Positions 50,508 to 53,957 of a stretch of DNA of 64,000 nt are shown here, one piece after another. Source of the stretch: Halarcobacter sp. (GTDB lineage Bacteria; Campylobacterota; Campylobacteria; Campylobacterales; Arcobacteraceae); assembly GCA_963676565.1 (NCBI GenBank), contig OY781089.1, positions 1,056,001 through 1,120,000 of the forward strand. The letters are read 5' to 3'. Position 1 is the stretch's first letter, and each line of letters opens with the position of its first letter. The notes beneath the pieces were generated by a model. The model was not told the DNA's origin and did no database searches. It worked only from the letters and a program-made list of their open reading frames with translations. Made by a program: the position numbers and the translations under genes.

Positions 50508-52787
50508 CTATCCATTTTCCTTTCTAATTTGATTTACTGCCTCAACCATGTTTATTAAACTTTGTTTAGTCTCTGGCCACTTTCTTGTTTTTAGTCCACA
50601 ATCTGGATTAATCCATAATTGCTCTTTTGGTAAAACTTCTAATAAAAGTTTTATTTGAGTTTTCATCTCCTCTACACTCGGAACTCTTGGTGAGTGAATA
50701 TCATAAACTCCAGGTCCAACTTCTTGTTTATATCCTACTTCTTTAAATATTTTAAGAAGTTCATTTCCACTTCTAGCAGTTTCTATTGATATAACATCTG
50801 CATCCATATCTTCAATAGTTTTTATAATATCATTGAATTGGCTATAACACATATGTGTATGAATTTGCGTTTTTTCATAGGCTGTACTAACTGATATTTT
50901 AAAATCTCTAACGGCCCATGATTCATAATCTTTTATTTTATTAGCCCTTAGAGGGTAACCCTCTTTAAAAGCAGCTTCATCAACTTGAATAATCTTGATT
51001 CCTTTTTTTTGTAGGTCATCAATCTCATCACTTAAGGCAACTGCAATTTGTTTTGATACATCACTTCTTTGGATATCATCTCTAACAAATGACCAGTTTA
51101 AAATAGTAACTGGTCCTGTTAGCATCCCTTTCATGATTTTAGAAGTTTGTTTTTGTGCATAAGTAATCCAATCAACTGTCATAGGTTTTGGTCTACTTAC
51201 ATCTCCATATATAAATGGTGGTTTTACACATCTACTACCATAAGATTGCACCCACCCATTTTGGGAAAATGCAAAACCATTTAATTGTTCACCAAAATAT
51301 TCAACCATGTCATTTCTTTCTGGTTCACCATGAACTAAAACTTCAAGGCCACACTCTTCTTGAAAAGCAATACAATAATCTATATATGTTTTCATATCTT
51401 TTTCATACTGTTCTTTTGATATGCAACCTTTTTTAAAGTCCCGTCTTGAATTTCTAATCTCAGGAGTTTGAGGGAAAGAACCAATTGTTGTTGTTGCTAA
51501 ATCTTCATATTTTAAAAGTTCTTTTTGAACTTTTATTCTTTCTTCAAACGTCCCTTGTCTTGAAGTGTTTTTAAACTCTTTAGTTCTTTTTTGTACATTT
51601 TTATCATTTATTCTTAATGAACTTCTTCTATTATGATTTGCATTGATATTCTTATCATAATATTTTAAATCTCCATTTTGTAAGCTTTCAATCCCTGTTG
51701 AAAAAATCTTTGATATTAATCTTAATTCTTGGAGCTTTTCACAAGCATAACTCAACCAAGATTTAATCTCTTCATCAAGTTTTTCTTCATATTTTAGTGT
51801 AAAAGGTGTATGTAGAAGGGAACAAGAAGTTGAGATGATAATGTTTTCTTTTTTTATTTTTTTATTAAACTCTCCCAATAAAAGAAGAGTTTTTTGAATA
51901 TCATTAACCCAAATATTTCTTCCATCTACAACCCCAGCAATTAGTTTTTTATCACTATTTGCAATTGCATCTAGAGATTTAAAGTTTTCCTTCCCATATA
52001 AAAAGTCTAAACCTAGAGCCCAAATAGGAGTATTTACCAAAATATTTGTAGCTTCATTTGAGTGCTCAAAATATGTTGTAACAATGATTTTAATATTTTG
52101 TGCAATATTTGCTAAGCAGTCGTATGTAGGTTTTATTAAACTTAATAGTTTTGAATCATTATCTTTTACAAAAATAGGTTCATCTATTTGTACAAAAATC
52201 TCATCATCTAATTTTGATATCTGCTCAATTAATTCTTTGTATATTGCTATAACTTTTGGATATAACTCAAAAACATCACCATTATCAATTCTTTTTGAAA
52301 GTCCTAAAAATGTTAATGGACCAATGATATTTATCTTTGTTTTTATCCCTAATTCTTTTGCTTCTTTGTACTCTTCAATTATTTTTTTAGCATTTAATTT
52401 ATATTCATCCTCCAAGCTTAATTCAGGAACTATATAATGATAATTTGTATTAAACCATTTAGTCATCTCCATAGCTACACTTTCATCATTTCCCCTAGCC
52501 ATAGCAAAATAAAGCTCTTCATCTTTTAAATCTTGAAATCTTTTAGGAATAGCATTTAACATAATACAAGTATCTAAGATATTGTCATATAGTGAAAAAT
52601 CGTTTGAACTGATAAATTTAATTCCTGCTTCTTTTTGATAGTTCCAGTGTCTTTTTTTAAGTTCACTTGCAACTTTTTTTACTTCATCAAATGAACAATT
52701 TTTTGTCCAAAAACTTTCTAGTACTTTTTTAAGCTCTCTTTGTTCTCCAATTCTTGGAAAACCAACTACGTATGAATTTACAGACAT
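50508..52787 (-). CDS. metE: Cobalamin-independent methionine synthase
   Basis: GFPRIG, KWFNTNYHY, TTIGSFPQ, HTHMCY and NPDCGLKTR motifs. Confidence 0.98.
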   Translation of the reverse strand: MSVNSYVVGFPRIGEQRELKKVLESFWTKNCSFDEVKKVASELKKRHWNYQKEAGIKFISSNDFSLYDNILDTCIMLNAIPKRFQDLKDEELYFAMARGNDESVAMEMTKWFNTNYHYIVPELSLEDEYKLNAKKIIEEYKEAKELGIKTKINIIGPLTFLGLSKRIDNGDVFELYPKVIAIYKELIEQISKLDDEIFVQIDEPIFVKDNDSKLLSLIKPTYDCLANIAQNIKIIVTTYFEHSNEATNILVNTPIWALGLDFLYGKENFKSLDAIANSDKKLIAGVVDGRNIWVNDIQKTLLLLGEFNKKIKKENIIISTSCSLLHTPFTLKYEEKLDEEIKSWLSYACEKLQELRLISKIFSTGIESLQNGDLKYYDKNINANHNRRSSLRINDKNVQKRTKEFKNTSRQGTFEERIKVQKELLKYEDLATTTIGSFPQTPEIRNSRRDFKKGCISKEQYEKDMKTYIDYCIAFQEECGLEVLVHGEPERNDMVEYFGEQLNGFAFSQNGWVQSYGSRCVKPPFIYGDVSRPKPMTVDWITYAQKQTSKIMKGMLTGPVTILNWSFVRDDIQRSDVSKQIAVALSDEIDDLQKKGIKIIQVDEAAFKEGYPLRANKIKDYESWAVRDFKISVSTAYEKTQIHTHMCYSQFNDIIKTIEDMDADVISIETARSGNELLKIFKEVGYKQEVGPGVYDIHSPRVPSVEEMKTQIKLLLEVLPKEQLWINPDCGLKTRKWPETKQSLINMVEAVNQIRKENG

Positions 52788-52846
52788 TAATATCCTTTAA
52801 TATTTTATTTTGATTTGTTTTATGTGTTAAATATTAAAGTTAATGT
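52784..52846 (-). promoter_or_regulatory. 18-bp hairpin pairing the leader-ORF stop region with the metE SD and AUG
   Basis: mRNA 5' ACAUUAA-CUUUAAUAUUU pairs with AAAUAUUAAAG-(GAUA bulge)-UUAAUGU. Confidence 0.7.
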
Positions 52847-53169
52847 GGTGGGTGTACTCCTGTTCGTCTAAATGCGAAACAAGTAGTATAATATGGACAT
52901 CTAGGGATAAATTTGAAAAGTAAGACTGTTAGTTTTGTTTTTAATTTAAACAGACAATCACAATGACAAGGTTTATTTGTAAGAATAGATGTAGTACAAA
53001 GAAGAAGCTCTGGTGGATCTTCATCTAATTCATCTATCTCTTTAGATAGTCTATATTGTAAAGTCTTTTTCGCAATAGTAACTTGAGATTCTAGTTTTAC
53101 TTGTACACTATGAGCTAAAATACTAACAAATGTAAAATATTTTTTTCCAAAACCTTTTGGTGACTTCAC
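52840..53169 (-). CDS. metE leader ORF (109 aa, putative regulatory uORF)
   Basis: Extended -10 TGCTATAAT (53211-53203) and SD aaagga 5 nt before GTG; ends RRTGVHPPH 52 nt before the metE ATG. Confidence 0.7.
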   Translation of the reverse strand: MKSPKGFGKKYFTFVSILAHSVQVKLESQVTIAKKTLQYRLSKEIDELDEDPPELLLCTTSILTNKPCHCDCLFKLKTKLTVLLFKFIPRCPYYTTCFAFRRTGVHPPH

Positions 53170-53267
53170 AACAATCCTTTCATAAAATTTTTAAGAGGTG
53201 CAATTATAGCAGAAAAATCTAAACTTAATTTAAAGTTAGATAAAATCGCAAAAACGTAAGGATAATT

Positions 53268-53957
53268 TTGAAATTTACATTTGTAACACTTTTTTCAAAT
53301 CTGATTGAACCATATTTTTATGACTCAATTTTAAAAAGAGCTGTTGAAGCAAATTTTATAAGTTATGAATTTTATAATCCACGGGATTTTACTAAAAATA
53401 AACACCTAAAAGTAGATGCTCAAATGGTAGGTGGAGGTGCTGGAATGCTTATGACACCCCAGCCACTTTTTGATTGTTTAGATGAGGTTAAAAAGAAAAA
53501 CCCTGATGCTTATATTATATTTCCTCTAGCTGCAGCAAAACCTTTTCGGCAAAATGATGCCAAAAGACTTGCAAAAAAACAGAATATTGTTTTTGTTAGT
53601 GGAAGATATGAAGGAATTGATGAAAGAGTTATTGAAAAATATGCCAATGAGGTTTTCTCAATTGGTGAGTTTATCTTAACAGGTGGTGAATTACCATCTT
53701 TAGTTATGGCAGATGCAATTTCTAGAAATGTTGAAGGTGTTCTTGGAAATGCTGATTCTTTGACTATGGAAAGTTATGAAAACAATCTTTTAGAAGCGCC
53801 TTCTTTTACAAAACCTGAAAAATTTGAAAATTTAAGTGTAATTAAAGAATTCTTAAAGGGAAATCATAGTAAAATTGCCGACCTAAAAAATAATCTGGCT
53901 ATTTGCAAAACAAAATATTTTAGACCAGGTTTAGTTACGAACAAAAAAACAAAATAG
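53268..53957 (+). CDS. trmD: tRNA (guanine37-N1) methyltransferase
   Basis: [15 protein letters not shown] and [11 protein letters not shown] motifs. Confidence 0.97.

Follow-up and report, generated by a model that had tools for sequence, protein, structure and literature searches.

A conserved small protein encoded ahead of metE in Halarcobacter and other Campylobacterales: a candidate sensor-type leader with a predicted hairpin over the metE ribosome-binding site

The window analyzed here is a 64,000-nucleotide (nt) stretch of the Halarcobacter sp. genome (contig OY781089.1), and our subject is a small open reading frame (ORF) on its minus strand, hereafter the leader. It is flanked by the divergent trmD gene (53268..53957, plus strand) on one side and by metE (52787..50508, minus strand) on the other, with 52 nt between its stop codon and the metE ATG. 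A previous reading of the window from sequence alone (the sequence-only reading) had proposed this ORF as a sensing or arrest peptide of metE, noting its GTG start, Shine-Dalgarno (SD) sequence and extended -10 element, the absence of internal Met, six Cys residues, an EDPP and the C-terminus RRTGVHPPH directly before the stop. All of these statements hold: the Cys residues are at positions 58, 68, 70, 72, 91 and 97, with CHCDC among them, and EDPP occupies residues 50-53. The features on which our analysis draws are the following.

52840..53169, minus strand: leader ORF, 109 codons plus a TAA stop, with its GTG start at 53169-53167
50508..52787, minus strand: metE, cobalamin-independent methionine synthase, 759 amino acids (aa), the presumed regulated gene, assigned from tblastn and blastp conservation
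53203..53211, minus strand: putative extended -10 promoter element TGCTATAAT, read from the sequence, which would leave a 5' untranslated region (UTR) of roughly 25-30 nt
53175..53180, minus strand: SD sequence AAAGGA of the leader, 5 nt 5' of the GTG
53107..53157, minus strand: N-terminal block KGFGKKYFTFVSILAHS, residues 5-21, homologous by profile matches to signal peptides of BtuB-like and other TonB-dependent receptors found in the phylum
53008..53040, minus strand: acidic linker with DPP, residues 44-54, seen in alignments and varying in length across the family
52954..52974, minus strand: KPCHCDC motif, residues 66-72; C70 is nearly invariant and lies 37 residues before the C-terminal Pro-Pro (PP)
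52888..52911, minus strand: FIPRCPYY block, residues 87-94, conserved only in the subtype ending in HPP
52846..52878, minus strand: FAFRRTGVHPP, residues 98-108; the PP (52846-52851) is invariant family-wide and is the candidate pause site, and R102 is encoded by CGA (52864-52866)
52828..52846, minus strand: predicted hairpin 5' arm (anti-SD), which takes in the final base of PP, the His and stop codons and CUUUAAUAUU; predicted duplex energy -10.2 kcal/mol (z -3.9)
52785..52805, minus strand: predicted hairpin 3' arm, made up of the metE SD AAAGGA (52793-52798), its flanks and the ATG

The length of the leader is by itself within chance, with shadow ORFs of 117 and 123 aa occurring inside the adjoining genes, and it is conservation rather than length that identifies it as a real gene. 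A six-frame search covered 61 related genomes and detected open frames with a strong protein match in 21 of 24 genomes of the same genus, 7 of 12 from the family's other genera and 6 of 24 from the order's other families. When 33 related loci were aligned by codon, the start column was occupied by GTG (14), TTG (10) or ATG (9), and inspection by eye placed an AAGG/AGGA-type motif 5-10 nt 5' of this column in most of the 31 loci listed. Invariant residues in the same alignment are encoded by varying synonymous codons: Gly104 by GGA (14), GGG (8), GGT (7) and GGC (4), Cys91 by TGC (18) and TGT (15), and both C-terminal prolines by CCA, CCT or CCC. Mean column entropy at codon positions 1, 2 and 3 was 0.93, 0.81 and 1.23, respectively. 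This synonymous variation, together with the highest entropy at third positions, argues for selection on the peptide rather than on the RNA. The pattern of substitution thus marks the leader as a conserved protein-coding gene across the Campylobacterales that is under purifying selection and is evidently translated. In four raw-read RNA runs from the label that includes a relative, 0 reads aligned, an outcome that does not bear on expression.

The codon usage of the leader is also unusual near its end. That R102 uses CGA in a neighborhood dominated by AGA had been pointed out earlier and is confirmed on a genome-wide scale, as CGA accounts for 2.6% and AGA for 84.6% of the Arg codons in ORFs of at least 300 aa in this 28.4%-GC genome. 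Across the 33 loci the R102 column contains CGA 17, AGA 11 and CGT 2 times, and the R90 column AGA 15, CGA 8 and CGT 5 times. Rare CGN Arg codons are over-represented close to the C-terminal end of the leader in these loci, the counts being from related sequences and not independent.

The sequence-only reading recognized no protein family for the leader, and our searches agree: it had no match in Pfam or NCBIfam at E<=10, the best ESM Atlas score (0.86) was under the useful range, and Pfam searches with 74 family members returned scattered chance matches with no family appearing consistently. Homologues numbered 275 at E<=1e-3 in large protein collections, all named 'hypothetical' and none with a Pfam domain; source names, where given, were Malaciobacter, Halarcobacter, Arcobacter, Sulfurimonas or simply 'Campylobacterota'. 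A profile search yielded 177 representatives at 50% identity, nearly all of 60-160 aa, a typical member being about 100-135 aa long. In an alignment of 74 sequences with 28% mean column identity, Y11, P107 and P108 are invariant and G6, F7, F12, L14, I17, A19 and C70 are at least 90% conserved, giving only about 10 family-wide conserved positions, while within the Arcobacteraceae the leader is conserved over its whole length. The N-terminal half of the family layout consists of a [KR]GFGKxYFxLxAIxA block, a variable acidic linker that usually carries DPP, and a CHC[DN]C Cys/His motif; the C-terminal half comprises a basic, poorly conserved stretch, then [ST]G[VIL][HAS]PP or N[AS]ISPP, and a tail variable in sequence and length. 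The expectation that only the tail, the DPP and the Cys residues would be conserved was therefore correct in part: the PP is invariant and the DPP and first Cys cluster are conserved, but the N-terminal GFGKxYF block is equally conserved, and family-wide conservation is missing from the second Cys cluster. For this last reason we dropped a zinc-ribbon reading (CxC...CxC), and a zinc-finger-type fold is disfavored too.

The spacing between these elements is uneven. Among 179 family proteins, a sample dominated by close relatives, the distance from Cys70 to PP is 37 residues in 114 and 34 in 39, while that from Tyr11 to Cys70 is spread over 43-76 residues. The tail after PP is mostly 1-7 residues long, with a mode of 4, and does not exceed 13 residues in 159 of the 179.

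One genus (g27) has short leaders of about 60-95 aa that keep the CHC...FRRTGxHPP half without the N-terminal block, and the same genomes contain, elsewhere, separate frames of 50-90 aa that match the N-terminal block alone.

The genomic company of the family was examined in a non-random sample consisting of the window's own locus (L001) and 91 related loci (L002-L093, L053 excepted). Automatic retrieval supplied L002-L015, L016-L034 make up the rest of the strong matches of the six-frame search, and L035-L052 and L054-L093 were chosen from a search of 401 genomes of the phylum for genus coverage and second copies. At the 78 loci whose family match extends to the C-terminal part, the next same-strand gene is metE in 67, a TonB-dependent receptor gene in 11 and anything else in none. 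The proposed tie to metE is thus upheld, and is kept where trmD is no longer the other neighbor; the stronger expectation that homologues always precede met or cys genes holds for the 67 and fails for the 11 receptor-type loci. The ending of the leader correlates with the partner gene. Overall the endings are HPP (53), SPP (13), APP (11) and TPP (1), preceded by V, I, L or T, the single TPP (L064) being a parsing artefact in which a later PP of the tail was picked and the true ending is TSPP. Ahead of metE they are HPP (53), APP (9) and SPP (4), plus L064, and ahead of receptors SPP (9) and APP (2). One genome carries both types, L047 at metE and L046 at a receptor, and a separate copy at each operon in one genome fits an action in cis.

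Several of the leader-linked receptor operons resemble vitamin B12 uptake systems. Three of the receptors best match the vitamin B12 receptor model TIGR01779 over their full length (E 5e-78, 2e-76 and 1e-63), two others are ambiguous between heme and B12 types, periplasmic binding proteins beside leader-linked receptors have BtuF as their best match (E 3e-28 and 3e-29), and a CobT-like gene continues one of the operons. ZnuD appeared only as a weak secondary match among the leader-linked receptor genes.

Two proteins, a membrane protein of about 190 aa and one of about 140-180 aa, recur 3' of the BtuB-like receptors (L061, L073, L084 and L046); they match no Pfam or NCBIfam family and are candidates for B12-uptake components. 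In family f4 (L026, L087 and L088), the gene for a receptor whose signal peptide has the leader-like block lies directly 5' of the leader-metE pair, forming a receptor-leader-metE cluster.

The end of the leader is predicted to pair with the ribosome-binding site of metE. In the window, 11 bases directly 3' of the leader stop (CUUUAAUAUU...) pair with AAUAUUAAAG(G), which holds the metE SD, and this 11-bp stem is common to the predicted minimum free energy and centroid folds. For 60 metE-type loci with a well-defined start, a 20-nt window was slid through the whole leader and scored for pairing against the metE SD region (-18..+3). Mean pairing was best at -6..-3 relative to the end of PP (-7.4 kcal/mol), as against about -3 to -5 kcal/mol elsewhere in the leader and -2.7 kcal/mol further downstream. 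The single best window of the leader fell between -27 and 0 of the PP end in 34 of the 60 loci, and pairing at the leader end was stronger than in mononucleotide shuffles with z < -2 in 27 of the 60 (mean z -1.74). The arms vary by lineage with complementarity kept, as in AAUUUCCUUUAA/UUUAAAGGAAAU, ACAAUAUCC/GGAUAUUG and GCUCCUCCUUUUUCUUU/AAAGAAGAAGGAGAAG. When partners were swapped among 50 non-redundant loci, leader ends paired with their own SD region at -9.33 kcal/mol versus -6.76 kcal/mol with foreign ones; the own SD region ranked in the top tenth in 19 of 50 loci and in the top quarter in 30 of 50, with a Wilcoxon P of 5e-6 that is overstated since the loci are related. The computed pairing energies show that the RNA of the leader end is complementary to the downstream SD region and co-varies with it. 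Pairing of the PP-adjacent RNA with the metE ribosome-binding site provides what a pause- or arrest-coupled leader needs, and the tail after PP would be free to vary as protein because its bases serve the stem. PP-to-start distances are mostly 45-70 nt in the metE type and 47-55 nt in 10 of the 11 receptor-type loci.

In certain species of the genus (L007-L012, L014, L016 and L017) the spacer between leader and metE is 100-213 nt long and contains GC-rich hairpins just 5' of the metE SD (e.g. GGTTCCC...GGGAAC), which have no Rfam match; L007-L009 and L014 have lost the anti-SD pairing next to PP.

The closest parallels to this arrangement are small exported or nascent sensor proteins encoded by upstream ORFs (uORFs), which have been described mainly for copper, with nickel and cobalt suggested (PMC9973294, PMC9426467, PMC12992588). 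CutF of Rhodobacter capsulatus is reported to be a small exported protein with a copper-binding Cys motif and a C-terminal proline-rich, stalling-like motif (PMC9973294). As described there, CutF-like proteins share with the leader a length below 150 aa (109 aa here), a position at the head of an operon, a motif of Cys and His residues and a PP no more than 15 residues from the C-terminus (107-108 of 109 here), and CutF shares an action in cis through a stem-loop, both predicted here, over the ribosome-binding site of the next gene that is opened by the ribosome at the leader end (PMC9973294). In our family, length, C-terminal PP, link to a downstream gene (78 of 78 loci, with a 52-nt gap in the window), Cys/His motif and predicted stem-loop were each found, the Cys/His motif as a candidate ligand site and the stem-loop being weak or absent in a minority of loci. 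CutF begins with a signal peptide (PMC9973294), whereas the corresponding block of the leader is homologous to receptor signal peptides yet has only average peak hydrophobicity. We detected no sequence relationship to CutF, and the downstream genes are not copper genes but metE, which encodes a cytoplasmic enzyme, or genes for BtuB-like receptors.

CruR (DUF2946) of Bordetella pertussis is a uORF protein that heads the operon of a TonB-dependent transporter, and the CXXC of its nascent chain is reported to sense copper, whereupon arrest at a C-terminal RAPP is relieved and the operon is shut off (PMC9426467). The leader family resembles it in the TonB-dependent receptor downstream of the receptor-type leaders, in the conserved Cys motif and in the C-terminal xxPP, and a ligand that lowers operon expression, as for CruR (PMC9426467), is the logic expected of B12 acting on metE and btuB. 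The differences are that CruR is described as having CXXC, RAPP and Rho-dependent termination (PMC9426467), while the leader has [VIL][HAS]PP and a predicted SD-sequestering hairpin; none of 74 family members matched DUF2946 at E<=1. RAPP/RGPP uORFs 5' of TonB-dependent receptors are reported to be widespread, nearly all with signal peptides, and the RAPP-like arrest peptides SecM, ApdA, ApdP and ApcA share with the leader a C-terminal proline motif near the stop and a place in a small protein 5' of the controlled gene (PMC12992588). Their motif, given as R-[AG]-P-[PG] (PMC12992588), differs from the VHPP of the leader, which has no Arg at -3 and no Ala or Gly at -2, so the earlier description of the tail as R-x-G-P/RAPP-like has to be replaced by [VIL][HAS]PP. 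With EF-P-dependent polyproline pause sites the leader shares consecutive Pro codons, those of the invariant P107 and P108; unlike attenuation leaders such as trpL and hisL, with their runs of codons for the regulated amino acid and their terminator/antiterminator, it has no internal Met codon, and no terminator-like sites were found within 52400-53400. Judged by its alignments and profile searches, the leader family is a new sequence family with CutF/CruR-type anatomy, matching no Pfam entry and lacking the RAPP motif. Our literature search found nothing on a metE leader or arrest peptide, or on B12 regulation, in this phylum. The main text of PMC9973294 makes no mention of Campylobacter, Epsilon, metE, B12 or cobalamin, and the supplementary lists of that paper and of PMC12992588 might include members of the family.

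The N-terminal block points to the origin of the leader. The family profile, over its first 45-105 positions, also matches the N-termini of TonB-dependent receptors of about 630-690 aa, where the block is plainly a signal peptide and precedes an acidic segment and the TonB-box region. One receptor with such a leader-like signal peptide has TonB-B12 as its best match (E 8e-71), and in at least 10 genomes the coordinates place receptors of this kind no more than about 5 kb from metH. These matches suggest that the leader arose by duplication and remodelling of the 5' end of a gene like btuB. In the leader block the hydrophobic core has decayed: Kyte-Doolittle means over 10 residues peak at 1.43 (1.58 in the window), while receptor signal peptides reach 2.25 and long ORFs of this genome average 1.69.

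Outside the window, the same genome has a 61-aa ORF (G000:C1:2288422-2288643, minus strand) with a strong SD, AAGGAGG, and an N-terminal K-NYFSFFGIL block (profile E 1e-3) and with neither the Cys motif nor PP. It lies 31 nt 5' of the gene for a 645-aa TonB-dependent receptor, near a second receptor gene, a NosL-like gene and a membrane-protein gene, and it may be related to the leader, either in degenerate form or as a version with another ligand.

Which signal such a leader might read is suggested by the company it keeps. The present genome has metH and seven Plug-domain receptors. Occurrence of the leader/receptor motif parallels that of metH family by family, the genomes being related and not independent:

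Family f1: leader/receptor motif in 22/23 genomes, metH in 22/23
Family f15: motif in 34/34, metH in 32/34
Family f17: motif in 8/8, metH in 7/8
Family f23: motif in 19/19, metH in 19/19
Family f4: motif in 4/4, metH in 4/4
Family f6: motif in 15/20, metH in 19/20
Family f13: motif in 0/7, metH in 0/7
Genus g41: motif in 20/21, metH in 20/21
Family f11: motif in 75/158 (weak matches to the N-terminus only, E 1e-4 to 1e-7), metH in 0/158

Together, metE, BtuB-, BtuF- and CobT-like genes and receptors linked to metH form the set that classically makes up a B12 regulon, and leaders of metE and B12-uptake genes are the genomic niche of the cobalamin riboswitch (RF00174). No Rfam family, RF00174 included, matched the region 52400-53500 of the window at E<=1, and at 23 related loci (E<=0.1 / 0.01) only tRNAs and one chance miRNA match were found. 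RF00174 was found nowhere in this genome and, with stricter filters, in 0 of 151 genomes of the phylum (the control was positive for 7 of 14 reference genomes); the search with other B12 riboswitch models was confined to the locus. The short 5' UTR would also leave no room for an aptamer 5' of the leader, and what is conserved here, unlike at a cobalamin riboswitch, is a peptide and no aptamer. A mixed case is known from Mycobacterium tuberculosis, where a translated uORF at the metE riboswitch is reported to modulate metE as well (PMC11260477). The identity of metE, the BtuB-, BtuF- and CobT-like company, the co-occurrence with metH and the failure to find a B12 riboswitch favor a B12-related signal over Met, S-adenosylmethionine (SAM) or zinc. 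That the input is cobalamin or cobalt availability is, however, the most speculative step of our explanation, and we offer it tentatively.

Putting these observations together, we think it probable, if only modestly so, that the leader is a cis-acting, translated, sensor-type uORF whose hairpin sequesters the SD of metE, the first gene of the operon it heads. The data show that it is coding, linked to these operons, conserved in its motifs and co-varying in its complementarity; that a pause occurs, how it is modulated and which way regulation runs are the parts that we infer. With no ribosome at the leader end, the hairpin would mask the ribosome-binding site of metE. If a ribosome paused on Pro-Pro, or terminated 1-7 codons further on, it would melt the 5' arm and expose that site, and the rare Arg codons might slow the ribosome further near the leader end. 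The nascent chain would set the dwell time on Pro-Pro. With PP in the peptidyl-transferase center, the Cys/His motif, 34-37 residues back, would sit at about the tunnel exit and the N-terminal block outside the ribosome.

A number of observations weigh against this explanation. PP alone is a weak pause that is relieved by EF-P, and the leader motif lacks the Arg at -3 found in RAPP/RGPP; an AAPP mutant of ApdP is reported not to arrest (PMC12992588). The hairpin is AU-rich and modest, and the 201-nt junction fold is not significant alone (z -1.18). Pairing was no better than in shuffles (z above 0) at 12 of the 60 metE-type loci; the non-pairing loci include three of the five with 138-156-nt spacers and extra hairpins (L007-L009, L014), the fifth of which, L012, does pair (z -2.7), and, with shorter spacers, L018, L021, L056, L064, L076, L078 and L085. 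Pairing was also weaker at the 11 receptor-type loci (z +1.1 to -2.4). A genus-level variant does without the N-terminal block (L023 and L048), and CutF-like export is doubtful because the block is no more hydrophobic than an average N-terminus. As to the signal, all BtuB-, BtuF- and CobT-like scores fall under the NCBI equivalog cut-offs, the B12 assignments being best matches. Cobalamin is, moreover, too large for the ribosomal exit tunnel, which makes direct sensing inside the tunnel unlikely; any sensing would therefore have to involve a partner or to happen at the tunnel exit or beyond it.

The same hairpin could serve plain translational coupling with no sensing at all, the leader being translated constitutively, the terminating ribosome opening the metE site, the peptide sequence being of minor importance and any regulation being transcriptional. 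The 5' arm takes in both the PP and the stop codon, little sequence separates the two cistrons, and a conserved ATTAAGC[TA]T motif 5' of the -10 box in Arcobacteraceae could serve as an operator. Coupling of this kind leaves unexplained, however, why a peptide of about 110 residues is under purifying selection, why PP is invariant, why the Cys lies at a fixed distance from it and why the family is confined to two kinds of operon, and we regard such coupling as unlikely.

We give a similarly low probability to a stand-alone protein that works in trans and simply shares its transcript with metE, for example as a small autoregulator or as a chaperone binding a metal or cobalamin. Conservation over the whole length in the Arcobacteraceae and the Cys/His motifs would suit such a protein, as would the long helix (residues 9-44) that AlphaFold2 predicts with confidence from a 31-sequence alignment. 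This helix is the only confident part of an otherwise poor model (predicted local distance difference test, pLDDT, 64; predicted template modelling score, pTM, 0.32), in which pLDDT is below 50 at residues 48-62 and below 60 in the C-terminal half. The small number of family-wide conserved positions, the unconserved second Cys cluster, the presence of a separate paralogue at each operon in one genome and a post-PP tail apparently constrained as RNA rather than protein likewise speak against such a protein.

The sequence-only reading had favored an arrest peptide tuned to methionine, cysteine, SAM or zinc status. MetE is a zinc enzyme of the Met pathway and the leader is rich in Cys and His, but there are no Met codons with which to sense Met-tRNA, only one Cys is nearly invariant, and the sister leaders precede BtuB-like/BtuF-like operons, not sulfur or zinc genes. 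The gene company instead points to cobalamin or cobalt, and this version seems to us quite improbable. Least credible of all is an unrecognized RNA element, a new riboswitch with the ORF incidental: metE and btuB are classic riboswitch targets and some relatives have extra hairpins between leader and metE, but even at about 27% identity, in AT-rich genomes, the reading frame is kept open, conservation has a codon pattern in which third positions vary freely, and neither the Rfam searches nor the short 5' UTR leave much place for it.

If the cis-acting leader does respond to B12, its wider meaning could be considerable. We raise as a doubtful but testable possibility that Campylobacterota control metE and BtuB/BtuF-like genes by btuB-derived nascent-peptide sensors. 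With the N-terminal block and Cys/His motif of the emerging chain these would read cobalamin or cobalt status, set how long the ribosome dwells on Pro-Pro and thereby how far the downstream ribosome-binding site is exposed, as a peptide-based functional replacement of the B12 riboswitch. If true, this would answer how metE and btuB-like genes are controlled in a phylum that includes Arcobacter, Sulfurimonas and their relatives without the riboswitch used by most bacteria, and the interest of the leader family would rise considerably. With this family, sensor uORFs would reach into vitamin uptake and the control of a central biosynthetic enzyme, and several hundred 'hypothetical proteins' would gain a name and an anatomy.

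The region 5' of the leader has conserved features of its own. TGnTATAAT-type -10 boxes lie about 30-43 nt 5' of the start codon in close relatives and are also present in many members from other families, in the metE type and the receptor type alike. About 15 nt 5' of the -10 box (about 53213-53225 in the window), most Arcobacteraceae loci (among L002-L034) have a conserved ATTAAG[CT]-type motif that could be a -35-like element or an operator; a search of other families for a shared TTAAGC operator turned it up in just 2 of 47 loci. The SD of the leader itself sits within a conserved ATGAAAGGA (53171-53186), an arrangement shared by about 20 same-genus loci, and the ATG of this element starts, in the window, a mini-frame of 5 codons whose TGA overlaps the GTG start of the leader.

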